Positions 9,201 to 46,967 of a stretch of DNA of 64,000 bases are shown one piece after another. This DNA comes from Patescibacteria group bacterium (lineage in GTDB: Bacteria; Patescibacteriota; Patescibacteriia; Buchananbacterales; GWA2-38-13). The DNA lies in the NCBI GenBank assembly GCA_028712155.1, contig JAQTQO010000001.1, forward strand, positions 1,501 through 65,500, read 5' to 3'. The translations under genes and the position numbers were made by a program. Under the pieces are notes generated by a model. It had not been told where the DNA came from and made no database searches. It saw only the letters and a list, made by a program, of their open reading frames with translations. How positions within the stretch are numbered: the stretch's first letter is position 1; every line of letters starts with the position of its first letter.

Positions 9201-9344
9201 GCGCGGGCGTATCCTCAAATCGGTGACGAGCGGATGCAGCAGCTGGGCAATGTGATCCAATTTCACGATCGGTTGACGACGGACAAATTTTACGGTATCG
9301 TTTTTACCCCGGCGGGAGCGGCCGCGGATAACCGCGCGCCGTAG
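6240..9344 (+). CDS. Large envelope protein with a DUF4012-like C-terminal region; basic N-terminus, long acidic/Pro/Thr-rich disordered segment, and a single TM
   Basis: Start set at ATG 6240, which overlaps the upstream TGA (ATGA), giving MKRKRKKLK…. The TM is around residues 370-395. The C-terminal region has …LFENNAELRATGGFVGSFALMD…, typical of DUF4012 proteins found in cell-wall loci. Confidence 0.6.
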   Translation: MKRKRKKLKTIRVRKPPVTHRRKLQRRAQRGKRKPARRRMLSVRHAVSAAVPTERHPESAVPQLSAESLPILASVADTPNVAASQTAQPFEPVTPAVEAVSAPATVAETVATDQTDTSSPAVSDARPPEINSAFAIAPVTPDEDSNPTMDIQDTTDFDEHSDNRTPTPAHVVWVSEINDVLETPPDALPIVPSEPENSDVAPAALTTVGVTPQPLSDDDASVAEVRPAILEEPEIPLHTVVPPQVTEITAPDLFDAAGNLTLPPKIQTRAAFTPNLAVTPVPPEPTTETPAVASDPFAPEAAETLSRMPPVQRKKRLDGVTGLSVTGAVRLAFWPVKFIYWPCRLFALRRQRRAYERQYAKQAAPIVETPLSNLARLALQFIVVCVVLLLPLQIAVYLQDLNDAQDHLLAQSGMAIGELRLGRDELKALRLMSAAEHFQRAQDSFLAANKEYRRLNFFTKAILKTTPHGQRALTAGLSLLTAGESLASVGSEFSTRAATVTRDGVGENLPEVLNMLNDYTDSMMGLLPKVAQARTALDRLDLTHDPLGNREGFLTAANALPELEETLKDSTAISRSILQLLGKGQWRRYLVLFENNAELRATGGFVGSFALMDVQDGKIINLEVPGGGTYDLQGRLMALVNSPAPLHLVNPRWEMQDANWWPDFPTSAKKTAWFLEQSRGGSVDGVIALTNTLVERILAVTGPIELPSYGRVISAENFVTETQNLVEIDYDRTENRPKQFLADLAPRLIERMLELDPVKQQALLTVLYEAIREKHLMMYSADPQTQEILASLDWAGQQQPVGLSDYLMVVTTNVLGGKSDRVVETNLRHAVTVGEDGKMTVSLMITKTHRGQADDPFTGLPNRSYLRVYVPAGSTLISATGFAPPDPSLEKAPDGVFTDDADLLAIEGQHEIDAASGVEIYAELGKTVFAHWLTVAPGEQRSATLTYQLPFTLDEANGSYTLLAQKQAGTAGDELLATLHFPVTNQVARAYPQIGDERMQQLGNVIQFHDRLTTDKFYGIVFTPAGAAADNRAP

Positions 9345-9391
9345 CCAATCCGGCCTGGCCGGTATCCGGTCCGGCGAGGTTTAGGTATACT

Positions 9392-11314
9392 ATGGAACCA
9401 AAACGGCTTCGACAATTGCAACAGCAGTCCGGCGTTGATTCCGAGCTGCTGAAAATTTACCGCGATTACAACGGTCAGGTACCGGATATTTCGCGTCTGC
9501 AAATCCACCGGACCAATTGGACCGCCCGGATTTTGGGGTGGGCGCTGGCACTCGGCGTGGTGGGGGGATTGGGGTGGTGGGCGTGGGCGTCGTTTATCGG
9601 CGGGAATGGCACCGCGGCGTCGAGCCTGCGGGTGGCCGTGACCGCGCCGCCCGAGCTGGCGTCCGGCGAAGCGGTGACCTACGCGATCAGCTACGAGAAC
9701 GTCGACCGGGTGGCGCTGCAGGGCGTTGAATTGAATGTGCGGTATCCCGAAGGGTTTACGTTCGTCAGTGCGGAGCCGACTCCGTCGAATGCATATCACA
9801 ATACCTGGCAGCTCGGGCAATTGCTGTCCGGTCGCAGCGGACAAGTCCGCATCACCGGGAAGGTGGTGGGAAACATCGGGAGCATCGTGACCGTGACCGG
9901 GACCGCGACCTACCGGCCGCAGAATTTCAACGAATCGTTCAAGGCCAAGAATGATTTTACCTCCAGCAGCCAGATCACCACTTCGCTTTTGACGCTGGAA
10001 ATTGCCGGGCCGGGGCAGGCGGTGGCCGATCGCGAAGTGACGTACACGGTGAACTACGTGAACGCGTCCGATAATCCGTTAAGCGACGTGCTCATCGTGG
10101 CGACGTACCCCGCCGGATTTACCTTCCGCAAGGCGACCCCGGGAATCAAGCCGCCGTCCATCACTGTCGCGTATCCGTCAAACGTTGGCGGCAAGCCGCC
10201 GGATGCGACGTGGGTGATCCCGACGATCGAACCGAAGGCGAAAGGGCAGATAGTTCTTGTCGGTGGATTTCCGACCGCACAGCAGGTCAACGGGAACGGC
10301 GGGCGTGAACTGGTCGTACGCGGGGGGTTTGTCGATGAAACCGGGACTTTTTCGCTCCAGCAGGAGCAGCGGTTCACGACCGCGCTGCTGCAGCCCAACC
10401 TGCAGCTTTCCCTCATCATCAACGGTCAGACCACCGACAAACCGGTGAATTTCGGCGATACGCTTGACTTCCGGGTGGTCTACAAAAATTTGGGGAAGGA
10501 GAAGCTGCAGGATGTCCGGATTACCGTTGAAATCGCGTCGAAGCTGATCGATTGGAACACGTTGACCGACAAGAATCTCGGCCGGGTCAGCGGCAACTCG
10601 ATCCAGTGGGATCAGCTGGGCATCGCGGGACTGGCGGAAATTCCGCCGCTCGGTGAAGGAACCATTGATTTTTCCGTTCAACTGAAACCGCAGCAATCCG
10701 TTGAGGCCGGGGTCGAAAATTTCAGTACCGTCAGCACGGCAAAAGCGGCGATCGCTTCGGTGGATAATTTAGCTTCCGACCAGGTGGTGGCGGCCACGCC
10801 GATCACCAATACCGTCAATACGTCGCTGACGCTGAAAGCCCAGGGACGGTATTTCAACGACGATAATCTGGCCGTCGGTTCCGGGCCGTTGCCCCCGGTG
10901 GTCGGTGAAAAAACCTCGTTCCGCATTTATTGGTCGCTGCAAAACAGTTTGCATGAGGCGAAGCGCGTGACGGTGACCACCAAGCTGTCCGCCGACGTCG
11001 TATGGGAGAATAAGCAGATCGCCTCGACCGGGCAGCTGATCTATAATCCGGATGACCGCACGGTGACGTGGGCGATCACGTCGATGCCGACCAAGGCGAG
11101 CGAGGAAGATTATAACGCATGGTTTGACATATCGGTCACCCCGGCCCAGGACGAGGTGGGAAAGCTTTTGCTGCTGACCAGTGAAACGAATCTTGCGGCG
11201 ACCGACGCCGTCACCAACGCCCCGATCGACGGCATGGTCCGAAGCATCACGTCAAATCTCGAGGACGACCCGTCCGTCGCGGGCCGCGGCTTGGTCGTTG
11301 AGCTCGGGCAGTAA
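9392..11314 (+). CDS. Cell-surface protein with DUF11-type conserved repeat domains, N-terminal TM anchor
   Basis: The 640-aa protein contains repeated units such as …VTYAISYENVDRVALQGVELNVRYPEGFTFVSAEP… and …VTYTVNYVNASDNPLSDVLIVATYPAGFTF…. An N-terminal hydrophobic segment (ILGWALALGVVGGLGWWAWASF) is present. Confidence 0.65.
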   Translation: MEPKRLRQLQQQSGVDSELLKIYRDYNGQVPDISRLQIHRTNWTARILGWALALGVVGGLGWWAWASFIGGNGTAASSLRVAVTAPPELASGEAVTYAISYENVDRVALQGVELNVRYPEGFTFVSAEPTPSNAYHNTWQLGQLLSGRSGQVRITGKVVGNIGSIVTVTGTATYRPQNFNESFKAKNDFTSSSQITTSLLTLEIAGPGQAVADREVTYTVNYVNASDNPLSDVLIVATYPAGFTFRKATPGIKPPSITVAYPSNVGGKPPDATWVIPTIEPKAKGQIVLVGGFPTAQQVNGNGGRELVVRGGFVDETGTFSLQQEQRFTTALLQPNLQLSLIINGQTTDKPVNFGDTLDFRVVYKNLGKEKLQDVRITVEIASKLIDWNTLTDKNLGRVSGNSIQWDQLGIAGLAEIPPLGEGTIDFSVQLKPQQSVEAGVENFSTVSTAKAAIASVDNLASDQVVAATPITNTVNTSLTLKAQGRYFNDDNLAVGSGPLPPVVGEKTSFRIYWSLQNSLHEAKRVTVTTKLSADVVWENKQIASTGQLIYNPDDRTVTWAITSMPTKASEEDYNAWFDISVTPAQDEVGKLLLLTSETNLAATDAVTNAPIDGMVRSITSNLEDDPSVAGRGLVVELGQ

Positions 11315-11387
11315 CAAAAGCGCAAAACGACTTAGGTATTTTTGAATATTACGTTGTCGTTTTTGCGTTTCCATTTTATTATCCGGA

Positions 11388-12509
11388 ATGTTTCAAATAC
11401 TCAAAACTTCGAAAATTTCCAGCGCCCGAATCTCGCGCCTGGCCACTCCTCACGGCACCGTCGACGGGCCTTTTTTTATGCCGATCGCGACGCGGGGGGC
11501 GGTCAAGCATTTGGCGGCCGATGAATTGGATGCCGTGGGCGCTTCCATAATTCTTTCCAACACGTACCATCTTTCCTTGCGGCCCGGGGCGGCGTTGGTC
11601 GCCCGCGGCGGCGGTTTGCACCGGTTGATGTCCTGGAAAAAACCGATCCTGACGGACTCGGGCGGTTTTCAGGTTTTCTCTTTGGCGCGCTGGCGGAAAG
11701 TAACCGACCGCGGAGTGGAGTTCCGTGATCCGACCACCGGTCAGCGCGTATTCCTCACTCCGCGGCGGGCGATTGCCATCCAACGCCAGCTGGGCTCCGA
11801 CATTCTGATGGTATTGGACGAATGTGTCGGGTTCACCGCCACCCGTGATCAAATTGCCGCTGCGGTCGACCGCACGACCCGCTGGGCGCAGGCGGCGGTC
11901 CCGCACCTGCCCCGGGGGCGGCGCCGCCCGCTGACGTTTGCCATCGTGCAGGGCGGGGTATATGCGCCGCTGCGCAAGCGTTCGGCCCAGGCGCTGGTAG
12001 CGATGCCTTTTGACGGATACGCCATCGGAGGTTTGGCGTTACCGGGGATCCATGAGTCGCGCGGAAAAATGCTTGCCACCGTTGGCCAGACGGCCGCGCT
12101 GTTACCGCCGCATAAACCGCGTTACCTGATGGGCGTCGGAAAGCCGGAGGAAATTCTCGCCGCCGTCAAACTCGGGGTAGACATGTTTGATTGCGTTATC
12201 CCGACCCGTGAAGCGCGGCACGGGCGTGCCTATGTGTGGTCGCAGTCCGGCCGTCGTATCGGATCGCGAGGGAATAGGTTGTTTTACCATACCGTGCAAG
12301 TGAAAAACAAAAGATTGAAAACACGTTTTCAACCGCTGGATAAAAAATGCAAATGTTTTTGCTGTAAAAATTACACCGCGGCCTACCTGAACCATCTCTT
12401 TCACGTCAACGAACCTCTGGGCCAGCGTTTGGTGACGCTCCACAATCTGAAATTTTACCTCGATTCGATGGCGGAAATCCGCCGGGCCATCCGTGCAGGA
12501 AGTCTATAG
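11388..12509 (+). CDS. tgt: Queuine tRNA-ribosyltransferase
   Basis: N-terminus …TPHGTVDGPFFMPIATRGAVKHL… and the C-terminal zinc motif CKCFCCKNYTAAYLNHL. Confidence 0.85.
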   Translation: MFQILKTSKISSARISRLATPHGTVDGPFFMPIATRGAVKHLAADELDAVGASIILSNTYHLSLRPGAALVARGGGLHRLMSWKKPILTDSGGFQVFSLARWRKVTDRGVEFRDPTTGQRVFLTPRRAIAIQRQLGSDILMVLDECVGFTATRDQIAAAVDRTTRWAQAAVPHLPRGRRRPLTFAIVQGGVYAPLRKRSAQALVAMPFDGYAIGGLALPGIHESRGKMLATVGQTAALLPPHKPRYLMGVGKPEEILAAVKLGVDMFDCVIPTREARHGRAYVWSQSGRRIGSRGNRLFYHTVQVKNKRLKTRFQPLDKKCKCFCCKNYTAAYLNHLFHVNEPLGQRLVTLHNLKFYLDSMAEIRRAIRAGSL

Positions 12510-13043: not shown

Positions 13044-15824
13044 GTGAGGGGTATGGGGGAGAAGCATGCGAAACTTGTGACGCGATTTGCGTGCCCGACA
13101 TGCCGCGGGATAGGCGTGCAGGGGGCGCAGCGCTGCCGTACGTGCGGCGGTCGCGGAACCATCGGGCGGCAGGGCGACCTGATGTTGTATTGGGGGCGTC
13201 CGATCGACTACCGGCATCTGGCGCAACGGCATGTCATCGCCATCGCCCAGTACACGGTGGTGACGATTCTGCTCGGGTTTGCCGCGTTGGGCGTCGGGGG
13301 GCTGCTCTGGCAGCTGATTCTGCTTGACCAGTACGGCGTACCGTTGTGGCGTTTTTGGGAGCAGCAGAATATTTGGATGCTGACGTTTTGGTGGTCATTG
13401 GTGGTGGACAGCTACCTGGTGTATCACTTCTCACAGGAGTACGCCAAAATTCAGCACATCCCGCGGCGAGCCCGGCGGGGAGTCACCGGCGCGGCCGCAC
13501 CGCCGACGTCCTGGGAAACGGCCCTGCAGGTCCGGCGCGGACAGACCGTGAATCTCTCCGACCTCTACACGGCGGAAGCGATCGCGGCGGTTGAAAAGTC
13601 GTGGGAGTTTGCCGCATCATCGCGCCACCACGCGGTGGCGCCTTTGCACCTGCTGGTTGCGCTACTGCAGTTTCCCGCCATGACGGAGATGTTTGTGCGG
13701 TTGGGCGCTCCGTTTACGCGTTTGAATCGGCTGGTGACGGGTGCGTTGCCGCGCTACGCCGTTCCGACCGGAAACGCCCTTACGTTCGACGCCGAATATT
13801 TTGAGGCGCTGTTTTCCGCGTACGAGGAGGCCTGGAGCCGCCAGCAGAAGAAAGTCGACCTTTCGGAACTGCTGGTTGCCTGCGTGACCACCTCCGAGGT
13901 GGTGCGCGACGTTCTCTATGACGTCAAGATCGACACGGACGCGATTCATAACGTCGCCGCATGGTTCCGCGTGCGGCGTGAACAGCGCGCGCGCTACCAT
14001 CATCTCCGCAGCCGCACGTCGTACCGGCCCCGGCGCACGACCATGGACCGCGCGATGACCGCGGTGGCGACGCCGGCCCTCGACAGCTTCAGCCAGGACT
14101 TGACGCAGTTGGCGCGGGCCGGGTACTTAGAGCCGTGCCTTGGCCGCGATCATGAAGTCACCGAAATATTCCGCATTTTTTCGGCCGGCGGCCGGCAGAA
14201 CATCGTGCTGGTCGGCAATCCCGGCATCGGCAAGCGCACCATCGTGAACGGCGTAGCGCAGCTGATGGTCGCCGAGGATGTGCCGAAGTTCATGCAGGAC
14301 AAACGTTTGGTGAGTCTGAGCGTGGCGCGGCTTATTTCCGGGGTGACGGCGAGCGTTGCCGAAGAGCGCTTGCTTCACTGTCTCAACGAAGCCGCGCGTT
14401 CCCGCAATATCATTCTCTTTATCAACGACGTGTCAAAGATGGTGGGGATTTCTCCGGGCGGCAGCGCATCGCTGGATTTGGCCGGGGCCCTTGCCCAGGC
14501 GCTCACCCAGACGGGCCTGCGCGCAATTACCACCGCCTTGCCGACCGACTATAGCCGGTACGTCGAAAATCACCTCCTTGGCCAGGTGCTGGAAAAGATG
14601 AATATTGAAGAACCCGAAGGTAACGACGCCATTCAAATTCTCGAAGCGAAAGTCGGCGCCATCGAGGCGAATTATCACGTATACTTCACGTACGAAGCGA
14701 TCGCGCAGGCAGTCAAATTGAGCGGCCGGTACCTGCACGACCGGTTTTTGCCCGAAAAGGCGATCGAAGTGCTGGATGAAAGCGCCGTGCGCACGCTCAA
14801 CGAAAAAGGGCGCGACAGCTCCGTCACCGGCCAGGATGTCGCCCTGACGGTGTCGGAAAAAACCGGCATCCCATTGACCGAAGTCACCCAGCAGGAATCC
14901 GCCAAGCTGCTGAATCTCGAGCAAGAAATTCACCAGCGCATGGTGGACCAGGAGGAGGCGGTGAAGCTGGTGTCGGCGGCCATCCGGCGGGCGCGGGCCG
15001 AGCTGCGCGACGTGCGGCGGCCGATCGTCAACCTGCTGTTTTTGGGGCCGACCGGCGTGGGCAAGACCGAACTGGCAAAAATCGTCGCGTCGGTGTATTT
15101 CGGGCGGGCGAGCGAACTGATCCGGCTGGATATGTCGGAATACCAGGAGAAATCATCCGTGAACCGCCTCCTGGGGGCGCCCGCAGGTTTTGAAGGGCAC
15201 GGCGAGGGCGGCTATCTGACCGAAGCGGTGCGTCACCATCCGTTCGCCTTGCTGCTGCTGGATGAGATCGAAAAGGCGCATCCGGATATTCTGAATTTGT
15301 TTTTGCAGGTCATGGACGATGGCCGGCTGACGGATGCGGTCGGCCGGACGGTGGATTTTACCAATGTCATTTTGATCGCCACGTCAAACGCCTGTACGCC
15401 GACCATCCAGCGTTTGACGGCTGCAGGGGTCAGCGTGGCGGAGGTAAAAGCCAAATTGCTTTCCGGCGAATTACAGCAGCACTTCCGGCCGGAGTTTCTG
15501 AACCGCTTCGATAGCGTGGTGGTGTTCAAACCGCTGGGCATGCCCGAGGTGCAGAAAATCGCCCGATTGATGCTGCAGGAGGTGGGCAAGCGTTTACTGG
15601 AGAAAGGAGTTTCCCTGCAGCCGACGGATGCGGCAATTGACGAACTCGCCACCGCCGGGTATGATCCGGAGTTCGGGGCCCGGCCGTTGCGGCGCGTGAT
15701 TCAGGAGCGCGTGGACGATGCGATCGCGACAAAAATCCTCGGCGGTGAGCTGGAGCGCCGGGATACCATTATTCTGGACGTGGGCGGACGCGTGACGATC
15801 AAGAAGCCGGCACGCCGGGCATGA
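13044..15824 (+). CDS. Membrane-anchored double-AAA+ Clp-like ATPase with N-terminal DnaJ-type zinc finger (atypical ClpC/ClpB relative)
   Basis: The N-terminus has CPTCRGIG…CRTCGGRG (two CxxCxGxG repeats) followed by two TM helices and Clp_N-like repeats. D1 has a degenerate Walker A (GNPGIGKRT) and Walker B (LFINDV), while D2 is canonical (GPTGVGKT; [11 protein letters not shown]). No ClpB-type M-domain and no IGF/LGF ClpP loop were seen. Confidence 0.7.
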   Translation: MRGMGEKHAKLVTRFACPTCRGIGVQGAQRCRTCGGRGTIGRQGDLMLYWGRPIDYRHLAQRHVIAIAQYTVVTILLGFAALGVGGLLWQLILLDQYGVPLWRFWEQQNIWMLTFWWSLVVDSYLVYHFSQEYAKIQHIPRRARRGVTGAAAPPTSWETALQVRRGQTVNLSDLYTAEAIAAVEKSWEFAASSRHHAVAPLHLLVALLQFPAMTEMFVRLGAPFTRLNRLVTGALPRYAVPTGNALTFDAEYFEALFSAYEEAWSRQQKKVDLSELLVACVTTSEVVRDVLYDVKIDTDAIHNVAAWFRVRREQRARYHHLRSRTSYRPRRTTMDRAMTAVATPALDSFSQDLTQLARAGYLEPCLGRDHEVTEIFRIFSAGGRQNIVLVGNPGIGKRTIVNGVAQLMVAEDVPKFMQDKRLVSLSVARLISGVTASVAEERLLHCLNEAARSRNIILFINDVSKMVGISPGGSASLDLAGALAQALTQTGLRAITTALPTDYSRYVENHLLGQVLEKMNIEEPEGNDAIQILEAKVGAIEANYHVYFTYEAIAQAVKLSGRYLHDRFLPEKAIEVLDESAVRTLNEKGRDSSVTGQDVALTVSEKTGIPLTEVTQQESAKLLNLEQEIHQRMVDQEEAVKLVSAAIRRARAELRDVRRPIVNLLFLGPTGVGKTELAKIVASVYFGRASELIRLDMSEYQEKSSVNRLLGAPAGFEGHGEGGYLTEAVRHHPFALLLLDEIEKAHPDILNLFLQVMDDGRLTDAVGRTVDFTNVILIATSNACTPTIQRLTAAGVSVAEVKAKLLSGELQQHFRPEFLNRFDSVVVFKPLGMPEVQKIARLMLQEVGKRLLEKGVSLQPTDAAIDELATAGYDPEFGARPLRRVIQERVDDAIATKILGGELERRDTIILDVGGRVTIKKPARRA

Positions 15825-35401: not shown

Positions 35402-37096
35402 GTGCACCGTGCAACATCGGGAAATAGCATGACCACGCACACGAAAGTTCGCCTTGGAGTACTGGGGATTTTCATCGTAACTGCGGTTGCGGTGCTTTTT
35501 GATTTCCCGCGTTTAGGCACCGGTTTAACGTTGCCGCAGTGGTTTTTGAAACCTTTTCGTCTCGGTCTTGATCTGCGCGGCGGAGTGCAACTGGTCTACA
35601 GCGCCGACGTCAGCGCGATTCCGCCGGGTGAGGAGTCTAGCGCCCTGGATGGCGTGCGGGACGTGATTGAGCGCCGCGTGAATATCTTTGGCGTATCCGA
35701 GCCACTGGTGCAGACTTCGCGCAGCAGTTCGGACTGGCGCGTGATCGTTGAGCTGCCGGGGGTGACCGATGTTAAGGCGGCCGTGGACCTCATCAATGAA
35801 ACCCCGCGACTCGAGTTCAAGGAAGTTGATACCAATCCCACAACGACCCCGACGCTGTCGGAAGCGGAAATCAAGGCAAAAGCTGAGACCGTACTCAAAG
35901 ACGCCCTGAAACCGAAAGCGGATTTTGCCGCATTGGCAAAGGAGTATTCCGACGACGCCGGTAGCAAGGACCAGGGCGGTGATTTGGGTTGGAAGAAAGC
36001 CAGCGATTTGGTGCCGGAATTTTCGGCTGCGTGTTTCAAGGACGGAAAAGTCGGCGCTGTGTATCCCAAGCTGGTAAAAAGCGAATTCGGATATCACATT
36101 ATCAAAGTGGTGGAACGGCGGGGTACGGGCGACAGCCTTGAGGCGCATTGTCAGCATATCCTCCTGTCCACCGTGCCGCCCCCCGCACCGACGGGCATTG
36201 TCTGGAAGAACACAGGACTGAGCGGGTCGCAGCTCAAGCGGGCAACGGTATCGTTCGATCCGCAAACGGGCGAACCGCAGGTGAGCTTGGTGTTCAATAC
36301 GGAAGGCGGTAAACTGTTCGGCGATATAACGCGCCGCAATGTCGGCAAGCAGGTGGCCATTTTCCTCGACGGAGCGATCATCTCCAGCCCGGTCGTGCGC
36401 GAAGCGATTACCAGCGGCAGCGCGGTCATCAGCGGCAATTTTTCCATCGCCGAAGCCAAGCAACTCAAAGAGCGGCTCAACGCGGGAGCGCTGCCGGTGC
36501 CCATCACCATCATTTCGCAGCAAACCGTGGGTGCGACGCTCGGACAAGCAGCGGTCATCAAGAGTTTCCAGGCGTCCATCTTCGCGGCCATCCTCGTCGG
36601 GCTGTTCATGATTTTGATCTACCGTTGGCCCGGTCTGATCGCGACTCTCAGCCTGGCGGTCTACGGGCTGGTGATTTTGGCGCTGTTCAAGCTCATTCCC
36701 GTCACGCTGACGCTCGCCGGTATCTCCGGTTTCATCCTCGGTATGGGTATGGCGGTGGACGCCAACGTGCTGATCTATGAGCGCCTCAAGGAGGAGCTGC
36801 GCGGCGGCGGGACGTTGTCGCACGCGATAACGCTCAGCTACCGACGGGCCTGGCCGTCGATTCGCGACGGTAATCTGACGACGCTGCTCACGAGCGTCAT
36901 CCTGATGTGGTTTTCCACCAGCGTCATCAAAGGCTTTGCCATCACCCTGGCGATCGGCTTGCTGGTCAACTTCTTTTCCGCTATGGTGGTTTCCCATCTC
37001 CTGATGGCAATGCTGCAGCCGCGCCGGCACCCGGAACGATGGCTGTGGTGGTACTGCGTCTCACCCCGAGAAATTCGGACGGTAAAAGGCAAGTAA
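35402..37096 (+). CDS. secD: Protein translocase subunit SecD with an embedded parvulin (PpiC) PPIase domain in the periplasmic head region
   Basis: SecD P1 and TM core are present. A parvulin motif (…DQGGDLGWKKASDLVPEFSAACFKDGKVGAVYPKLVKSEFGYHIIKV…) is inserted between the P1-head segments. Confidence 0.75.
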   Translation: MHRATSGNSMTTHTKVRLGVLGIFIVTAVAVLFDFPRLGTGLTLPQWFLKPFRLGLDLRGGVQLVYSADVSAIPPGEESSALDGVRDVIERRVNIFGVSEPLVQTSRSSSDWRVIVELPGVTDVKAAVDLINETPRLEFKEVDTNPTTTPTLSEAEIKAKAETVLKDALKPKADFAALAKEYSDDAGSKDQGGDLGWKKASDLVPEFSAACFKDGKVGAVYPKLVKSEFGYHIIKVVERRGTGDSLEAHCQHILLSTVPPPAPTGIVWKNTGLSGSQLKRATVSFDPQTGEPQVSLVFNTEGGKLFGDITRRNVGKQVAIFLDGAIISSPVVREAITSGSAVISGNFSIAEAKQLKERLNAGALPVPITIISQQTVGATLGQAAVIKSFQASIFAAILVGLFMILIYRWPGLIATLSLAVYGLVILALFKLIPVTLTLAGISGFILGMGMAVDANVLIYERLKEELRGGGTLSHAITLSYRRAWPSIRDGNLTTLLTSVILMWFSTSVIKGFAITLAIGLLVNFFSAMVVSHLLMAMLQPRRHPERWLWWYCVSPREIRTVKGK

Positions 37097-37115
37097 CGCA
37101 TATTCTCTGGCACGT

Positions 37116-38018
37116 ATGTTCACGGTTATTCCGCATCGCAAGTGGTGGTACATATTCTCAACGCTTTTGGCGGTGGGGAGCATTATCGTGCTATTCACCT
37201 GGGGGCTGAAGCCGGGAATTGATTTTACCGGCGGGAGTTTACTCGAACTCGATTATCCGACCAGCACCCCGTCGCTGATCGATATCCGCAACACCGTGCA
37301 GCAGTCGACCGGGCAGACCGTCTCCACGGTCCAGTCGGTCGGCGAACGCGGGGTGGTCGTCCGTTTTCCCCACATCACAGAAGCGGCGCACCAGAAATTA
37401 CTGACGGATCTCAAGCAGATCGGGCCGGATGTCATCGAGCAGCGGTTTGATGCCATTGGTCCGACCATCGGAGCGGAACTGAAGCAAAAAACCGCGTGGG
37501 CGGTCGGATTGGCGGTGCTGGGGATGATCATCTACATCACGATCGCATTCTACAAGGTTACCCGGCCCGTGCCGTCGTGGCAGTACGGCAGCATCGCGAT
37601 CTTCTCACTGCTGCATGATCTGTTGATTACCGCCGGAGCATTCGCCGTCATCAGCCGTTTCTACGGCATGGAGGTGAACGCCTCTTTTGTCGCGGCCATG
37701 CTGACGGTGTTCGGGTATTCGGTGAACGATACCATCATTATTTTTGACCGGATCCGCGACAACCTGCAGCATCACCCGAACCCAAACTTTGCCGAACTGG
37801 TGGACACCAGTATCCGGCAGACGCTGTACCGCTCCACCAATACCGTTCTCACGGTGCTTTTGGCGCTCTTTGCCGTGCTGCTGTTCGGCGGGGAATCCAT
37901 CCGTGATTTCGCCGTCACGCTCATCGTCGGCATTACGCTGGGAACCTACTCGTCAATTTTTCTCGCCAGTCCGCTGCTGGTGGAAGCGCAGCGCATCCGG
38001 TTCGGCAAAAAGCGGTAG
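37116..38018 (+). CDS. secF: Protein translocase subunit SecF
   Basis: The 300-aa protein has the SecF fold pattern and six TM segments. Confidence 0.85.
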   Translation: MFTVIPHRKWWYIFSTLLAVGSIIVLFTWGLKPGIDFTGGSLLELDYPTSTPSLIDIRNTVQQSTGQTVSTVQSVGERGVVVRFPHITEAAHQKLLTDLKQIGPDVIEQRFDAIGPTIGAELKQKTAWAVGLAVLGMIIYITIAFYKVTRPVPSWQYGSIAIFSLLHDLLITAGAFAVISRFYGMEVNASFVAAMLTVFGYSVNDTIIIFDRIRDNLQHHPNPNFAELVDTSIRQTLYRSTNTVLTVLLALFAVLLFGGESIRDFAVTLIVGITLGTYSSIFLASPLLVEAQRIRFGKKR

Positions 38019-38037
38019 ACAACCGATGCGCCGGGCA

Positions 38038-38068
38038 AAAAATTCCGGTCCGCCGGAATTTTTTTTAT
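38038..38068 (+). terminator. Intrinsic terminator after secF
   Basis: AAAAAA-ATTCCGG-TCCG-CCGGAAT-TTTTTTT. Confidence 0.7.
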
Positions 38069-38169: not shown

Positions 38170-38198
38170 TTGACTATTCTTTGACTTTATGCTATATT
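38170..38198 (+). promoter_or_regulatory. Sigma70-like promoter in the AT-rich region upstream of the 38251 operon
   Basis: TTGACT at 38170-75, a 17-nt spacer, then TATATT at 38193-98. Confidence 0.45.
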
Positions 38199-38250
38199 TT
38201 CATTATTGGGATAAATGATATTGTTTTTTGGCTAAGATAAGTGGAATAAT

Positions 38251-39450
38251 ATGGCTCAACCAAAGTCAATTTTGGACAAAATCATCCAAAGTAAAAATAT
38301 TGAGGAAGCCAGTCAGTTCAACCCAACGGAAATCATTTCCGATCTGGTGAAAGAGCTGAATGCAAAGGAGCGCGAAGTACTGTCGCGCCGTTTTGGGCTG
38401 AATGGAGAGCCATTGCAGACGCTGGAGGAAATCGGCAAGAATTTTGAAATCACTCGCGAGCGCATCCGGCAAATTCAGGGTGCCGCGGTGCGTAAGGTTC
38501 GCGTGGCGGCCGAAGCGAAGCAGAGGCTGGCGGTGCTTGAGCACACGGTCACGCGACTTTTGCACGAACACGGCGGAATTGCCGAAGCGGAAACGTTTTA
38601 CCGGAATTTACTTTCCCATCTCGACGAATCCGCAACGCATCGTCAGGCGGCCATTTTCATCATCACCGAGCTTTTGCCGACGCATGTTGAACGGGTCCGG
38701 CAGAATGATCAATTCTATCACGGTTGGAAGCACCGGGTGCTGGATTTGGCGTTTGTTCAGCAAACGATTGACACGTTGCGCGGACTCATTGAGGGTCAGC
38801 AACGGTCGCTGAAATTTGACGACCTGATCACCTCGTTTAAGGGCCATGATTTCTACCTTGCCAACCGCGAACGTTTTGTTCCGGCCGGCATCACGATGGT
38901 GGAAAATGACGAGGAGGCGATCAACCGGGTATTGCTTTCGTATCTGACGATCAGCCGGCAGATCGAGCAGAATATCCTGGGTGAATGGGGGCTGAGTGAA
39001 TGGCCGACGATTCGTCCCCGCCGCATGGGCGACAAGATTTACCTCGTACTCAAACAGGGCGGTAAACCCCTGCATTTTACGGAAATCACCGAAGAAATTA
39101 ACCGGGCGAGCTTTGATCACAAGGTGGCGTACCCTGCGACGATCCACAATGAGCTCATTTTGGATGAGCGGTACGTCTTGGTCGGGCGTGGCATTTACGC
39201 TCTCCGCGAATGGGGCTACGAGCCAGGAACGGTTGGAGATGTTATTATGAAAGTGCTCACCGAGGCCGGTAAGCCGTTGACGCGCGACGAGATCGTCAAC
39301 GAAGTCAGCCGGCGCCGGTTTGTCCGGAAAAGTACGATTTACCTGGCGCTGACCAATCGCGAACATTTTGCGAAAATCGGCGACCGTTATCAGCTCAAGC
39401 CCGAAAATCAAGCGGTCGGCGTGCGCGCCGGTGCGAAAAAAACAAACTAA
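38251..39450 (+). CDS. Sigma-70 region-4-like HTH domain protein (no sigma region 2) with large C-terminal domain of unknown function
   Basis: N-terminus …EREVLSRRFGLNGEPLQTLEEIGKNFEITRERIRQIQGAAVRKV… (sigma70_r4 pattern). The remaining 300 aa are uncharacterized. Confidence 0.65.
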   Translation: MAQPKSILDKIIQSKNIEEASQFNPTEIISDLVKELNAKEREVLSRRFGLNGEPLQTLEEIGKNFEITRERIRQIQGAAVRKVRVAAEAKQRLAVLEHTVTRLLHEHGGIAEAETFYRNLLSHLDESATHRQAAIFIITELLPTHVERVRQNDQFYHGWKHRVLDLAFVQQTIDTLRGLIEGQQRSLKFDDLITSFKGHDFYLANRERFVPAGITMVENDEEAINRVLLSYLTISRQIEQNILGEWGLSEWPTIRPRRMGDKIYLVLKQGGKPLHFTEITEEINRASFDHKVAYPATIHNELILDERYVLVGRGIYALREWGYEPGTVGDVIMKVLTEAGKPLTRDEIVNEVSRRRFVRKSTIYLALTNREHFAKIGDRYQLKPENQAVGVRAGAKKTN

Positions 39451-39506
39451 ATACTTCCCAATCCGTCCGGTTTTTGGCGTGCGGGCGCGGTGCGGGGAGT
39501 GGCGTT

Positions 39507-40853
39507 ATGGGTTTCAATCTCAATGAATTTGCCGATGTAGCAGCGCAAAATCCATTTGTGCTGATCGGGTGGTTTCTCGCCCACGGTGGGTGGGTTTTTT
39601 TGTTGCCGTGGGCGGTGTGGGTGGCGACGGTGATGTGGCTGGAATGGCGGCGGGGGATTTACGATTCCCAGCGCGAATTTGTCGTACTGGCCGTTGATAT
39701 TCCGCGCACCAACGAGCAGACGCCGCGGGCTATCGAGCAGTTGTTCTCGCATTTTTCCGGCATGCACAACGATCCGCAAAAAGAGGATAAGTGGATCGCC
39801 GGCGAAATGGAAGAAAGCATTGGTCTTGAGATCGTGAGCTTCGGCGGCTATATTCAATTTCTCATCCACCTGAACGTCAAATTCCGCGATCTGGTCGAGG
39901 GGGCGATCTACGCGCAGTATCCGGAGGCGGAAATCGCCGAGGTGGAGGATTACGCGATGCGTTTCAAGGGCATCAAATTTCCTAATGATCAGTTTGACGT
40001 CTGGGGCGGCGAGCTGCGCATGACCAATAAACAATACTACCCGATTAAAACCTACCGTGAGTTCGAGGATATGGTTTCCGGCGAATTCAAGGACCCGATG
40101 GCGAGCATCCTGGAAATTTTCAGCAAGATGACGCCGGATGAGCAGGCGTGGTATCAAATTGTTATCACTCCGGCCAACAATAATTGGGGCGAGCCCGGAA
40201 TGGAACTGGTGTACAAACTCATCGGCGCTAAAGTATCAAAAAAGAAAAAAATTTGGGAGAGCCTTATCGACGCGCCGTTGAACATTATCAGCATGTTCGG
40301 GGACATCATTTCCGGCACGTGGGGCGTAGCCGCCCAGGAGCAACCGGCGACGCTCATCCCGATGAGCCAGATGTTGCACCTCCCGCCCGGCAAGCGCACG
40401 GTCGTTGAAGCAGTGGAGCGGAAAATTTCCAAAATCGGTTTTCATACCCGCATCCGGTTGGTTTACATCGCGCGGAAACATGCGTTCAATAAAGCGACGC
40501 GTTCCAGCGCGCTGTTCGGCGCGATCAAGCAATTCAATACGCTGGATATGAACGGGTTCAAGCCAAACAAGAAAAAATTCACCAAAGTGTATGGCCTGTT
40601 CAAAAAACCGCGCATTAATATCCGAAAGAATAAGGTCATGCGCTGGTATCGGATGCGTGCGCGGCAGTACGAACCGGGGTACTATGGGCCGATTTTGAAT
40701 ATCGAAGAATTGGCCGGCTTATGGCATTTCCCGCTGATGACGGTAAAGGTGCCCACGCTCCAGCGGACGGAAGCCAAGCGCGCGGAGCCGCCGGTAACCT
40801 TGCCCATCGCGCCATACCGTGAAGGTGAGCCGCCGGTCGACCAACTTGTATGA
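39507..40853 (+). CDS. Bitopic membrane protein of unknown function, translationally coupled to the downstream ATPase
   Basis: Start at ATG 39507, with GGGGAG 7 nt upstream. The N-terminus has two hydrophobic helices, followed by a large soluble domain with a Lys-rich C-terminus. The stop overlaps the next ATG (ATGA at 40850). Confidence 0.6.
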   Translation: MGFNLNEFADVAAQNPFVLIGWFLAHGGWVFLLPWAVWVATVMWLEWRRGIYDSQREFVVLAVDIPRTNEQTPRAIEQLFSHFSGMHNDPQKEDKWIAGEMEESIGLEIVSFGGYIQFLIHLNVKFRDLVEGAIYAQYPEAEIAEVEDYAMRFKGIKFPNDQFDVWGGELRMTNKQYYPIKTYREFEDMVSGEFKDPMASILEIFSKMTPDEQAWYQIVITPANNNWGEPGMELVYKLIGAKVSKKKKIWESLIDAPLNIISMFGDIISGTWGVAAQEQPATLIPMSQMLHLPPGKRTVVEAVERKISKIGFHTRIRLVYIARKHAFNKATRSSALFGAIKQFNTLDMNGFKPNKKKFTKVYGLFKKPRINIRKNKVMRWYRMRARQYEPGYYGPILNIEELAGLWHFPLMTVKVPTLQRTEAKRAEPPVTLPIAPYREGEPPVDQLV

Positions 40854-42727
40854 CGAATCCGGAAAACGATCGCATCGTGTATTTCGGCATTACCAACTTC
40901 CGCAACCAGCGGTTGAAGTTTGGCATAAAAAAAGACGACCGGCGCCGTCACATGTACCTGATCGGGAAAACCGGCATGGGCAAATCCACGGTGCTGGAAA
41001 ATATGGTCGTCCAGGATATTTTGAACGGCGAGGGAGTCGCCGTGGTGGATCCGCACGGCGATTTCGCCGAGAAAATCATTAAGTTCATTCCCAACCACCG
41101 CATCAACGACGTCGTCTATTTTAACCCTTCCGACATCGATTTTCCCATCTCGTTCAACGTGATGGAATCGGTGGATGAGCAGCACAAGCACCTCATTGCA
41201 TCCGGCCTGGTTGGCGTGTTCAAAAAACTCTGGGCGGACTCCTGGGGGCCCCGGCTGGAATACGTGCTGCGCAATGCGATTCTGGCGCTCCTGGATTACC
41301 CGGGCAGCACACTGCTTGGCGTCATGCGTATTCTGGTAGACAAGAATTATCGGAAGAAAGTCATCGCGAAAATCAAAGACCCGGTGGTGCGGTCGTTTTG
41401 GGTGGACGAGTACTCGAAGTACCCCGACCGTTTTCAGGCCGAAGCGATCGCCCCGATTCAAAATAAAGTCGGGCAGTTCTTGTCAACCGCGCTGATCCGC
41501 AACATCGTCGGCCAGGTCAGGTCCAGCATTGACATTCGCGAGGTCATGGACCATCAAAAAATTCTCATCCTTAATTTGTCCAAGGGGCGGCTCGGTGAAG
41601 ACGCATCGGCTTTGATGGGCGCGATGATGATCACCAAAATCCAGCTGGCGGCGATGAGCCGCATCGACCTGCCGGAGGATGAGCGCAAGGATTTCTACCT
41701 CTACGTCGACGAGTTCCAGAATTTCGCCACGGAAAGTTTCGCGAACATTCTCTCCGAGGCCCGCAAATACCGTCTCAACCTGATTATCGCTCACCAATAC
41801 ATCGAGCAAGTCGAAGAGAATGTTCAGGCGGCGGTACTGGGCAACGTCGGTACCATCATGGCGTTTCGCATCGGCGCCGCCGACTCCGAGTTGCTGGCCA
41901 AGGAATTCGCGCCCTATTTCGACGAAGAGGACGTCGTGAACCTGGCCAAATACGACATTTACCTCAAGCTGATGATCGACGGCGTCGCATCAAACCCGTT
42001 TTCCGCCACGACACTCCCGCCGATCGAGAAATGGGCCAAACCCTCGGGAAACGTCGATAAGATCGTCCAGGTGACGCGCGAACGGTACGGCAAGCCGCGT
42101 GAGATCGTGGAGGATAAGATTGCCCGTTGGAGCGGCATGGTGGGGGAGGGCGAAGAACGGGAAGCATCGGATGAGGACGCCGAACCGGCACCGCGTTTGA
42201 AGGTGGTCGAGCCGCGGATTTTCAGGCCGGTTACCCTTGTGCCGTCTGCCGAGACGGGAAAACATCCGGCGCCGACGCCGGTTGCACCGACCAAAGACGA
42301 GCGCAAGCCTGCGGCCGCGAACCGCTTTACCGTTGATTGCTACGAGTGCGGTGCGCAGGTCGAAGTGAACTTCAAGCCTGACGGTATCCGGCCCGTTTAC
42401 TGCAAGCGTTGTTTTAAGGAAATTCGTGAACGTTCGTTGCGGAAGGAATCGGCCGCCCCGGAAGCGGTTCAACCGCCGGTGGCGGAAATGAGCCTGGCCG
42501 ACGCGCTCCGGTCCAAACCCGTCCCGATCAGCGCCACGCGCCGCCGCACGCACAGCGAAGAGCGGCCGGAGTCAGACGCAAGCATGGCATCCGCAGCGGC
42601 ACCGACGCCCGATGAAAGTGCCGGTACAGAAACCGACGTCACCGTGAAAGAGGAGACGTCGCGTCCCCGGAAAGATTTTTCGCACCCGCAGATTCTGTCG
42701 CCCCGCCGGATCGTACGGTTCAATTAA
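40850..42727 (+). CDS. VirD4/TraD-like (type IV coupling protein family) P-loop ATPase with C-terminal CxxC-x17-CxxC zinc ribbon and disordered tail
   Basis: Walker A LIGKTGMGKST, a T4CP-like DPHGDF motif, and Walker B LYVDEFQNF. Zinc ribbon CYECGAQ…CKRC at 42338-42415. Confidence 0.7.
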   Translation: MTNPENDRIVYFGITNFRNQRLKFGIKKDDRRRHMYLIGKTGMGKSTVLENMVVQDILNGEGVAVVDPHGDFAEKIIKFIPNHRINDVVYFNPSDIDFPISFNVMESVDEQHKHLIASGLVGVFKKLWADSWGPRLEYVLRNAILALLDYPGSTLLGVMRILVDKNYRKKVIAKIKDPVVRSFWVDEYSKYPDRFQAEAIAPIQNKVGQFLSTALIRNIVGQVRSSIDIREVMDHQKILILNLSKGRLGEDASALMGAMMITKIQLAAMSRIDLPEDERKDFYLYVDEFQNFATESFANILSEARKYRLNLIIAHQYIEQVEENVQAAVLGNVGTIMAFRIGAADSELLAKEFAPYFDEEDVVNLAKYDIYLKLMIDGVASNPFSATTLPPIEKWAKPSGNVDKIVQVTRERYGKPREIVEDKIARWSGMVGEGEEREASDEDAEPAPRLKVVEPRIFRPVTLVPSAETGKHPAPTPVAPTKDERKPAAANRFTVDCYECGAQVEVNFKPDGIRPVYCKRCFKEIRERSLRKESAAPEAVQPPVAEMSLADALRSKPVPISATRRRTHSEERPESDASMASAAAPTPDESAGTETDVTVKEETSRPRKDFSHPQILSPRRIVRFN

Positions 42728-42782
42728 AGTATTTTGGGCGCATCGTCGTCCGACCGGACGATTTTTTTGTGTTGCTGAATGT

Positions 42783-44345: not shown

Positions 44346-46967
44346 TTGACTATGGATCCGTCGAAATTTACCTACAAAGTCCAAGAGGCGCTGCAGCGGA
44401 CCGTGCAGTTCACCACCGAGCTTGGACAGCAGCAAATTACCGTGCCCCACCTCCTGTACGTTCTGGTGGAGCAATCGGACAGCATTGTCCCGGCCGTGCT
44501 CAAAAAACTGGAGATTGACCTCGCGGCGCTCAAAGAGCGCCTGCTTGAAGCGGCCAAAAAAATGCCGACCGTGAACGGTCTGGTGGTGACGCCGTATCTG
44601 ACGACCGAATTCAACGTGGTATTAGGCCGGTGCGAACGCATCGCAAAATCATTGGGCGATGAATATGTCTCGACCGAACACCTGCTGCTCGGCATCACCG
44701 AAGTGAATTCCGAGGCGAAGACGATCCTGGGTGATTTTGGCGTGACGCATGAGCGCGTCATGAACGTATTGAAAGAGGTGCGGGGGAGCCACCGGGTCGT
44801 CGACATGGACCCCGAAAGCAAATACCAGGCGGTGCGCAAGTACGCCACGAATTTGAACGAACTGGCGCGTAACGGCAAGCTCGATCCGGTGATCGGACGC
44901 GACCGTGAGATCCGCCGGATCATGCAGGTGATTACGCGGAAAAAGAAGAATAATCCGGTGCTCATCGGCGAACCGGGTACCGGAAAGACCGCGATCGTGG
45001 AAGGGTTATCCCAGCGGATCGTCAAAGGTGACGTTCCCGAAAGCCTCAAAGATAAGGAAATTCTGAATCTGGATATCGGTTCGATTTTGGCCGGGTCGAA
45101 ATTCCGCGGTGAATTTGAAGACCGCTTGAAAGCGGTCCTGAAAGAGATCGAGGATGCGGAGGGCAAATTTATCCTGTTTGTCGACGAACTGCACGTCATC
45201 GTCGGCGCCGGCGGCGCGGAAGGTGCGATCGACGCGGCCAACCTTTTGAAACCGGCGTTGGCCCGCGGCAGCTTGCGGATGATCGGCGCCACGACGCTGA
45301 AGGAGTACCAACGTTACGTGGAAAAGGACGCCGCGCTCGAGCGGCGGTTCCAACCGGTTTTTGTCGGCGAACCGACCCTGGAGGATACCATCGCGATTTT
45401 GCGCGGGATCAAGGAAAAGTATGAACTGCACCATGGCATTAAAATCACCGATGGCGCGTTGATCGCGGCCGCCAAGTTATCCCAGCGCTACATTACCGAT
45501 CGGTTTTTACCCGACAAGGCGATTGATCTGGTGGATGAGGCGGCGTCGGGCTTGCGGTTGGTGATCGATTCGATGCCCGATGACCTGGATGTGTTGAAGC
45601 GCAAGATCATTCAGCTGAAAATTGAAAAAGAGGCGTTGAAAAAGGAGGGCGGAGCGTCGTCAAAGCCGCTGGCCGAGGTGAAGGCAAAACTCGCGAATAC
45701 TGAGGAGCAGGCACGGCAGATCGAGATTCACTGGCGGGCCGAGAAGGAACTCATTAACCAGATCAAGCAGGCGCGCGAGGATATCGATAAACTCAAGATG
45801 AAAGCCGAACGGTATGAGCGCCAGGGCGAACTTCAGCAGGTGGCGGAAATCAAGTACGCCGGGTTACCCGGACTGGAGAAAAAGATCACCGAACTCACGA
45901 GTAAGCTCAACCGGCTGCAAGCCGAACGACAGATCATCAAGGAAACCGTGACCGAAACGGATATCGCGGGCGTGGTTTCGCGCTGGACGGGAATTCCGGT
46001 GGACAAGATGCTGGAAAGCGAGTCGAAGAAACTTGCCCGCATGGAGGAAATGTTGCGGCGGCGCGTGGTCGGTCAGGACCAGGCGATCGCGGCAGTTTCC
46101 AACGCGGTCCGGCGGTCGCGCGCCGGGATCGCCGAAGAGTACCGGCCGATCGGCACGTTCCTGTTTCTCGGTCCCACGGGCGTCGGCAAAACGGAACTGG
46201 CGAAAGCCGTCGCGGAGTTTCTCTTCGATGACGAACGGGCGCTTGTTCGGGTTGATATGTCCGAATACATGGAACGGCACTCGGTGGCTAAAATTACCGG
46301 TTCACCGCCGGGGTACGTCGGTTACGAGGAAGGCGGACAGCTGACGGAGATCATCCGCCGACGGCCGTATGCGGTCATCCTGCTCGACGAAATCGAAAAA
46401 GCACACCCGGATGTGTTCAACTTGCTGCTGCAGATTCTTGACGAAGGTCGTTTGACCGATGCGAAAGGGCGCGTCGTGAATTTCAAAAACACCGTGGTCA
46501 TCATGACGTCAAATCTCGGATCGGACATCATTCACGAGTACGCGCTCGGCTTTACCACCGAACGCCGGTCCGCCGGCATCAATCAGCAGGAGATGGAAGA
46601 TCGCATCCAGGATATGTTGCGCCGGACGTTTAAACCGGAATTTCTCAACCGGCTGGATGCCAGTATCACATTCCATGCGCTCGGACATCGGGAGATCCGT
46701 CAGATTATCGATCTGCAGTTGCGGCAGGTCAGCGAACGCCTTGCCCAGCAGGGGATTACGGTCGGGTTTAGCGAGCGCCTGAAAGATTACCTGGCCAAGA
46801 AGGGTTTTGATCCGGCATTCGGCGCCCGGCCGCTCAAACGCCTGATCCAGCAAAAAATTCTTGACGAATTAGCGCTGGGAATCGTTGAGGGCCGGTTGAA
46901 GGAGGGCCAACATCTGACCGTCGATGAACGAAAAGGAAAAGTCGTTACCGCGCCGACAAAATCGTAA
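44346..46967 (+). CDS. clpB: Chaperone disaggregase ClpB
   Basis: The 873-aa protein has two AAA domains (GEPGTGKT; GPTGVGKT), a long coiled-coil M-domain, and no ClpP loop. Confidence 0.9.

Follow-up and report, generated by a model that had tools for sequence, protein, structure and literature searches.

A predicted split coupling protein-family ATPase encoded among housekeeping genes of a Patescibacteria genome

Introduction

The type IV coupling proteins (T4CPs), among them TrwB of R388, VirD4, TraD/TraG, Cag-beta and DotL, are the closest described relatives of the protein at the center of this study, the ATPase g3. It is encoded together with two further genes, g1 and g2, at positions 38170-42727 of a 64-kb window (the whole stretch of DNA that was analyzed) from a metagenome-assembled genome (MAG) of the Patescibacteria, or candidate phyla radiation (CPR). 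Like T4CPs, g3 combines a P-loop domain with an inserted all-alpha domain and contains a TraG-D_C region; T4CPs are its top matches in both sequence and fold, and fused members of its family sit beside VirB4 clusters and a relaxase-like gene. Unlike T4CPs, g3 lacks a transmembrane domain, the anchor and an extra domain of 350 amino acids (aa) being placed on the separate protein g2; it carries a C-terminal CxxC-x17-CxxC zinc ribbon; and its locus is chromosomal and vertically inherited, with no relaxase or type IV secretion system (T4SS) gene nearby (38 larger open reading frames, ORFs, in 64 kb). We conclude that the locus does not represent a new kind of system: it encodes a known secretion ATPase in a variant that is split and fixed in the chromosome. 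Our preferred reading, function included, is that of a split T4CP-family motor with a membrane subunit resembling the N-terminal domain (NTD) of VirB4 and with a dedicated DNA-binding companion, and we give it a probability of roughly 0.6.

Patescibacteria depend on envelope machines for life on hosts. In the passages of their report considered here, Quinonero-Coronel et al. (2025; PMC12102498) counted 5,713 VirD4-type T4CP homologues in 2,918 of 3,035 Patescibacteria genomes, only 148 of them near virB4, and found monoderm-type VirB4 T4SSs in 2,417 genomes; nearly every genome carries "orphan" T4CP homologues according to these figures. The same passages describe the t4cp homologue of "Candidatus Southlakia epibionticum" as dispensable and its T4SS genes as essential, and state that exaptation "cannot be ruled out" (PMC12102498). 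The T4SS is thus essential in the only species in which this was tested, while its gene cluster in Southlakia was reported by Wang et al. (PMC10633639) to lack a recognizable coupling protein.

As far as those passages of PMC12102498 describe them, g3 belongs to the kind of protein counted there as T4CP homologues, and a lone coupling protein-like ATPase amid housekeeping genes is an already known property of the phylum. A first-pass annotation of the window had proposed a minimal module not described as a named system. This proposal is supported only in part, as the module is a split variant of a known T4CP family and T4CPs far from virB4 had been reported in the passages cited. For the same reason, the absence of T4SS genes from the window is no proof of autonomy. 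The orphan T4CP described here is one half of a two-gene unit, the parts of which occur fused in T4SS clusters and in clusters resembling integrative and conjugative elements (ICEs) elsewhere. The passages cited are silent on a DUF8128 partner, a VirB4-NTD-like fold, a split/fusion relation, a zinc ribbon and a sigma-r4/HARE-HTH neighbor, and in our literature searches no paper dealt with a link between DUF8128 and the VirB4 NTD, with a split/fusion relation or with a sigma-r4/HARE-HTH partner. What the present analysis adds to the searchable literature is therefore the nature of the partner and its VirB4-NTD-like fold, the occurrence of the motor in both split and fused form, the zinc ribbon and the association with g1.

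The ATPase g3

The three genes are consecutive ORFs on the + strand, set among housekeeping genes:

38251-39450, + strand: g1, 399 aa
39507-40853, + strand: g2, 448 aa, ATG start as in the NCBI model
40850-42727, + strand: g3, 625 aa, NCBI protein MDD5109619.1

Proteins identical to g2 and g3 are present in NCBI, encoded on an 87-kb contig of a Patescibacteria-group MAG. The ATG of g2 is preceded, 7 nt upstream, by GGGGAG, and an alternative in-frame TTG start at 39474 would add 11 residues, giving 459 aa. The stop codon of g2 and the start codon of g3 overlap as ATGA, which the first-pass annotation had seen correctly.

Judged by sequence and fold, g3 is very probably an ATPase of the T4CP (TrwB/VirD4) family. 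Four of its elements were invariant across 54 homologues: the Walker A motif GKTGMGKST (aa 39-47, nt 40964-40990), the DPHGDF box (aa 67-72), the Walker B motif YVDEFQNF (aa 285-292, nt 41702-41725) and the CxxC-x17-CxxC motif of the zinc ribbon (C497, C500, C518 and C521; ribbon region aa 493-525, nt 42326-42424). Pfam profiles matched by g3 were TrwB_AAD_bind (E 5.7e-13, 48.9 bits against a cut-off of 20.5, profile positions 9-331 of 387), TraG-D_C (E 7.8e-6, 26.3 bits, cut-off 22), T4SS-DNA_transf (E 1.8e-4, 20.9 bits, cut-off 20.1), DUF87 (E 1.9e-7, 31.9 bits) and zf_Tbcl_2 (E 5.1e-11). The top NCBIfam matches were TraD/VirD4-like models, all far under their equivalog cut-offs, and a CxxC-x17-CxxC domain model exceeded its cut-off. 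By sequence (phmmer against the PDB), the closest solved relatives were TrwB (1.6e-7) and then DotL. Neither a hydrophobic nor a membrane segment was found in g3, in which Walker A begins as early as aa 39. An assignment to FtsK/SpoIIIE was rejected, with no match to Pfam FtsK_SpoIIIE at E<=0.1 and no FtsK among either the PDB sequence matches (E<=1) or the 50 best fold matches. The first-pass annotation, which had called g3 coupling protein-like rather than FtsK-like and had recognized its zinc ribbon, is borne out on both counts.

In the AlphaFold (AF2) model of g3, for which 54 homologues were used, the core and the zinc ribbon are predicted with confidence, and some segments are disordered. 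An all-alpha insertion of eight helices (aa 110-234, nt 41177-41551) separates the strands of Walker A and Walker B and occupies the position of the T4CP all-alpha domain. In a Foldseek search the top 25 matches were all TrwB chains (best E 6.8e-12, TM-score 0.60 when normalized to TrwB), followed by HerA, Cag-beta, DotL and VirB4, and a profile of the g3 family scored TrwB at 33.6 bits.

The tail of g3, earlier described as long, acidic and disordered, is indeed disordered (predicted local distance difference test score, pLDDT, <50) but not acidic: aa 530-625 contain 15 D+E versus 15 K+R, with a pI of 6.96. It holds conserved islands (42455-42727), namely a short helix near L549/F560 and a C-terminal K-P-G-Q-x-I/V-x-F-like motif. 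The latter is present in most species irrespective of g1 (homologues in loci L001-L100) and looks like a docking motif for some partner. Among the homologues, the distribution of the zinc ribbon and of the C-terminal motif shows no correlation with that of g1, and the idea of such a link was rejected.

g2 and its fused relatives

A tblastn comparison of g2 with plasmids led to a Priestia megaterium megaplasmid, on which a DUF8128-like region is followed by a g3-like ATPase within the same gene. With this Priestia fusion ORF as the query, 120 homologues were listed. The great majority (102 of 120) were 700-930 aa long and carried PF26449 plus TrwB_AAD_bind and/or DUF87, and 94 of the 120 gave collinear, abutting BLASTP matches, first to g2 (up to about residue 385) and then to g3 (from about residue 387). 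The junction within the fused proteins is thus the point at which g2 and g3 are split. In one fused protein (P0432), for example, g2 aa 30-433 align with residues 10-382 and g3 aa 10-444 with residues 387-833; another (P0427) is 31% identical to g2 and 62% identical to g3. Named sources of the fused forms include Bacillus, Priestia, WWE3, WS6 and Parcubacteria. As predicted from these alignments, g2 and g3 are the two halves of one T4CP-like motor that is a single polypeptide in other bacteria.

The fused proteins have one N-terminal transmembrane segment, or none, ahead of DUF8128 and no such segment between the two parts. Because no transmembrane segment separates the g2-like from the g3-like part, the globular domain of DUF8128 should be cytoplasmic. 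The zinc ribbon was found in none of the 102 fused proteins.

The surroundings of the fused genes varied. In Bacillus sp. Brlt_9 (locus L085, JAYJLO010000003.1, 1-12541), the fused gene is the neighbor of a T4SS cluster of the monoderm type, made up of VirB4, a detached TraC-like gene, PrgI/VirB3, a T4SS pilin and a cell-wall hydrolase. This gene set is that described as typical of Patescibacteria T4SSs, and CheW and sigma-factor genes are also found nearby. On a 786-kb contig of 67% GC (locus L087), the fused gene directly follows genes for a pilin, TrbL/VirB6, PrgI, VirB4 and a hydrolase and directly precedes those for a Replic_Relax protein, DUF3560, a methylase and a serine recombinase; the layout is, by its gene content, ICE-like, with the fused protein in the presumptive T4CP position. 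On a third contig the fused gene had housekeeping surroundings. No relative of g1 was present in the four fused-form loci checked. Conjugation apparatus does accompany the family elsewhere, as the fused members inside T4SS/ICE-like clusters show, a finding which that annotation had itself named as speaking against its proposal.

Group I introns are uncommon in bacterial protein-coding genes. On Priestia megaterium pFDU301A (L084, NZ_CP045273.1), the fused gene (9168-11546) is broken by two tandem group I introns (10215-10475 and 10535-10793; Rfam RF00028, 89.4 bits each), the insertion point being immediately behind the "YVDE" of Walker B. The reading frame is broken at two more places, where two copies of a 212-nt repeat are located (9502-9713 and 10920-11131). 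The sequence cluster of this fused protein also contains uninterrupted versions of 848 aa.

The split-off partner had been described as a bitopic membrane protein without a recognizable domain. However, the exact sequence of g2 (P0121) carries PF26449, that is, DUF8128 (PF26449.1, precomputed), as do 119 of 120 listed g2 homologues. No match had been obtained with a Pfam release predating PF26449 or with NCBIfam, and a g2 profile found nothing among PDB sequences even at E 10. DUF8128 is a large family, with 3,323 representatives at 50% identity (E<=1e-3), and a literature search for PF26449 or DUF8128 found no paper. The N terminus of g2 has a Trp-rich hydrophobic stretch (aa 16-47, nt 39552-39647) interrupted by GG, which leaves the term bitopic unproven.

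The structural model of g2 (62 homologues; pLDDT 87; predicted TM-score, pTM, 0.80) consists of short N-terminal helices over the Trp-rich stretch and, following these, an alpha/beta region of about 350 residues. All nine Foldseek matches at E<=1e-3 were chains of TrwK, with low TM-scores of 0.30-0.37. The NTD of TrwK comprises residues 15-400 and has a previously unknown fold, and in R388 the VirB4 NTD mediates VirB4 dimerization and binds VirB3 and the tails of VirB8 (PMC9259494). We infer from the model that g2 matches the NTD of TrwK/VirB4, because the many structural relatives of the VirB4 C-terminal domain did not appear among the matches and because the fold of the TrwK NTD was previously unknown. 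To the VirB4/TrwK NTD and the detached TrsD or TraC-like proteins of monoderm T4SSs, g2 has no detectable sequence similarity, and its ATPase is of the T4CP type rather than the VirB4 type. Two known ATPase-partner pairs also differ: DotM of the DotL-DotM pair was not among the fold matches of g2, similarity to EccE of the EccC-EccE pair (type VII secretion) is partial, and neither pair is known as a fusion. The first-pass annotation had postulated a dedicated membrane partner for g3. Dedicated to g3 it is, but g2 is not a separate novel protein; it belongs to the same ATPase family, as an N-terminal module that has become detached.

If the model is right, a function class could be assigned to a large domain of unknown function (>3,000 sequence clusters), and g2 would be expected to bind VirB3- or VirB8-like subunits. 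A T4CP clade with a VirB4-like domain order is also relevant to the evolution of conjugation ATPases.

g1 and gene order across relatives

The first-pass annotation had described g1 as a sigma-70 region 4-like protein without region 2. Both points agree with our Pfam search, which found Sigma70_r4 at aa 34-84 (nt 38350-38502, E 3.6e-13) and no match to sigma region 2; a HARE-HTH domain at aa 263-321 (nt 39037-39213, E 6.9e-10) and a second, weak winged-helix-like match at aa 329-358 had been overlooked. All NCBIfam sigma equivalog scores were far under their cut-offs. Compared with RpoD/RpoS, g1 matches region 4 at its N terminus and lacks sigma regions 2 and 3. Because region 2 is missing, g1 is not a sigma factor. 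Residues 259-321 match the NTD of the RNA polymerase delta subunit with 40.5 bits, just below the cut-off of 42; unlike the delta subunit, g1 is associated with DUF8128 genes and has no acidic tail. The T4CP gene trwB of R388 is directly preceded by trwA, a small gene for a DNA-binding protein, which is an analogy for g1, not evidence. A literature search combining HARE-HTH with sigma found nothing relevant.

Gene order was evaluated in 80 species-level genome loci fetched with an alignment of g2. The triplet's synteny, which the first-pass annotation had put forward as a check, is partial: g3 is the next gene after g2 in 51 of the 69 loci that could be evaluated, and g1 comes immediately before g2 in 32 of 71. 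In 42 of 71 loci, secDF is located no more than 2.2 kb upstream of g2, with or without g1 in between. Three close relatives retain g1-g2-g3, one of them with different flanks. The exceptions that were checked included secDF-g2 without a neighboring ATPase, g1-g2 with glycosyltransferase genes behind them, and secDF-g2-g3 lacking g1. Conversely, when 18 full-length relatives of g1 were fetched independently from metagenomes, g2 followed in 12 of the 14 with enough sequence downstream. Its presence upstream in only part of the loci, taken with these 12 of 14, points to g1 as a dedicated but dispensable companion of g2. An apparent g1-g2 fusion in one relative (L025) was rejected, since a stop codon separates the two genes.

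secD-secF also stands upstream of DUF8128 where no ATPase gene comes next (window 35402-38018; L004-L083). secDF may stand close to DUF8128 because this order was inherited or because DUF8128 is functionally connected with the Sec machinery. In a scan of viral contigs for g2, a single marginal, partial match was obtained, and the module is therefore not phage-borne.

Proposed mechanism and alternatives

In the preferred reading, a split T4CP-family motor, g2 and g3 would form one membrane-tethered VirD4/TrwB-family ATPase that is distributed over two translationally coupled genes. g2 would supply the membrane anchor and a cytoplasmic domain of VirB4-NTD fold, and g3 the P-loop motor with its T4CP-type all-alpha insertion, zinc ribbon and disordered tail with conserved short motifs. 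g1 would be a dedicated DNA-binding partner, acting either as a regulator of the operon or as a substrate adaptor; its gene stands where, upstream of T4CP genes, those of relaxosome accessory proteins such as TrwA are placed. A ring of g2 and g3 in a 1:1 ratio could assemble at the membrane and use nucleoside triphosphates to handle a DNA, nucleoprotein or protein substrate, which would be passed to the VirB4-type T4SS encoded elsewhere in most Patescibacteria. The family assignment, the fold similarity, the split/fusion relation, the synteny and the vertical housekeeping context are direct results of the analysis.

Several observations weigh against this reading. The likeness of g2 to the VirB4 NTD is structural only, with low Foldseek TM-scores and an unreported aligned range in TrwK; the link is drawn from the fold because hhalign comparisons of g2 with TrwK and with the Bacillus TraC-like protein were not significant. 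A neighboring g3 is missing from 18 of 69 g2 loci, and g1-g2 pairs without g3 exist. Neither the 38 larger ORFs scanned in the 64-kb window nor the ~5 kb 3' of it include a T4SS, relaxase or pilin gene, and the T4SS partner of this MAG is assumed from phylum-wide statistics. Finally, the excess of T4CP homologues over VirB4, together with the dispensability in Southlakia, favors a role separate from the T4SS.

These last points lead to the best-surviving alternative, which we consider possible but rather doubtful: g1-g2-g3 would be an exapted, autonomous core translocase for DNA or another polymer, associated with the membrane and working without a T4SS, for instance in chromosome handling at division or in DNA uptake or export. 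In essence, this is what the first-pass annotation had proposed. The order secDF-(g1)-g2-g3-ugd/mnmA is vertically conserved in a housekeeping setting in many species, and the module is absent from viral contigs, its sole plasmid match being the Priestia megaplasmid. In the passages of PMC12102498 considered here, T4CP homologues occur in 96% of Patescibacteria genomes versus 80% for VirB4 and are seldom near virB4, the Southlakia homologue is dispensable next to an essential T4SS, and the authors allow for exaptation. The split lineages have, moreover, gained features, the zinc ribbon and g1, that were not seen in the fused forms (102 proteins and four loci, respectively). However, fused members hold the T4CP position in T4SS/ICE clusters, and the fold of the partner domain is the one that VirB4 uses for docking onto VirB3 and VirB8. 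A single small anchor gives a ring ATPase no obvious channel through the membrane, and MAG incompleteness can account for part of the gap between 96% and 80%.

A related and bolder idea, which we regard as unlikely, is that DUF8128 plus T4CP constitutes a third, hitherto unrecognized architecture in the VirB4/VirD4 superfamily, a motor that kept a VirB4-type NTD and that was split and domesticated in ABY1/Parcubacteria-type Patescibacteria as a core, T4SS-independent nucleic acid translocase. The split form would then have gained its zinc ribbon and a sigma-r4/HARE-HTH partner binding DNA or RNA polymerase. If true, this would bear on the origin of T4CPs from a VirB4-like ancestor, and a domesticated translocase could handle host-derived DNA in these ultrasmall episymbionts.

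That g2 and g3 are instead a split VirB4, i.e., a T4SS assembly ATPase rather than a coupling protein, is very improbable. The fold of g2 matches VirB4/TrwK only, the order of NTD and ATPase is as in VirB4, and a detached protein resembling the VirB4 NTD, TrsD or TraC-like, also occurs in monoderm T4SSs. Against this, g3 stayed below the cut-offs of AAA_10 (15.3 bits, cut-off 27.5) and P-loop_TraG (12.1 bits, cut-off 25.8) and had no CagE_TrbE_VirB match, while the g3 family profile scored the Bacillus VirB4 below 0 and gave no match for TrwK or the VirB4 of L087. Both L085 and L087 also encode a separate bona fide VirB4 in the cluster that holds the fused DUF8128-ATPase.

Hardly credible at all is a HerA-type ATPase of anti-phage defense or DNA repair with g2 as its effector or partner: although g3 has PADLOC matches to mad8 (8.1e-16) and HerA (4.3e-10), HerA structures including defense complexes rank high in its Foldseek results and region 4 of g1 matches MzaA, TrwB outranks HerA by both sequence and fold, g2 has no PADLOC match, g1 matches through a generic sigma region 4 only, no nuclease, Sir2 or NurA partner is present, and the gene order is fixed in a housekeeping context across many species, unlike in defense islands. 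As a HerA candidate, g3 reached 13.3 bits with NCBIfam helicase_HerA (cut-off 970), matched only through the generic DUF87 central domain and had no NurA-like neighbor. The FtsK, VirB4, HerA and defense assignments were all rejected on membership tests.

Locus layout and surroundings

The signals read around the trio are as follows:

~38037-38066, + strand: hairpin ttccgg-tccg-ccggaa 3' of secF, with an A-run and a T-run on its sides, read from the sequence
38170-38198, + strand: sigma-70-type promoter-like site TTGACT-17-TATATT with TG extension, 10/12 consensus matches
42745-42772, + strand: terminator-like hairpin and T-tract directly 3' of the g3 stop, 7 pairs, 4 of them GC, tail TTTTTTGTGT

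The first-pass annotation had placed three codirectional genes behind one promoter-like site, and we found both the ORFs and the site where it had put them. Promoter-like sites numbered 7 versus 4.1 +/- 2.0 in shuffles, and the one at 38170-38198 is a consensus match only. The hairpin 3' of secF is likely a terminator separating the operon from secDF; it is missing from the list of the terminator scan, probably since the A and T runs lengthen its stem. A further terminator-like hairpin (8 pairs) with a T7 run lies inside g2, at codons 24-30 (39576-39594), which encode HGGWVFLL, part of the membrane anchor. Because terminator-like sites are no more common than in shuffles (13 versus 10 +/- 3.1), this internal hairpin is probably a by-product of the coding sequence. 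Taken as consensus matches, these signals make a layout that fits a single g1-g2-g3 transcription unit.

The trio is flanked by secD and secF upstream and by ugd, clpB and mnmA downstream, all assigned from their translations and from the Pfam labels of syntenic genes in relatives. The Pfam scan of the window covered 38 larger ORFs, with ORFs of <200 aa and a few larger ones outside it. The scanned ORFs are housekeeping or envelope genes; the window's genes include those for glycosyltransferases, TGT, two ClpB-like proteins, FtsEX, a P-type ATPase, YidC, DnaB, RecR and PMT, as well as SecDF, Ugd, MnmA, AlaRS, RpoA, Fmt and Def. In keeping with the first-pass annotation, which had stressed a housekeeping context without T4SS or relaxase genes, the scan of the 38 larger ORFs, which leaves aside short genes such as those for pilins (<200 aa), turned up no VirB4, VirB11, relaxase or integrase. 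The ~5 kb past the 3' end of the window (PriA, LigT and WecG; short Logan fragments) likewise contained no T4SS genes.

Three neighboring genes or gene pairs have features of their own. secD (35402-37096) has an inserted PpiC/parvulin-type rotamase domain; a parvulin-like stretch is visible in the window protein, and the SecD proteins of relatives (L001, L003 and L054) have Rotamase Pfam matches inside. Two ClpB-like AAA+ genes lie within 30 kb of each other (13044-15824 and 44346-46967), the first with an atypical N-terminal region of about 360 residues ahead of its first AAA match. A large DUF4012 protein adjoins GT4 glycosyltransferases in the window (6180-9344), and in one relative (L072, 7460-11583) the same GT4-DUF4012 pair stands directly downstream of g1-g2, in the place of g3.

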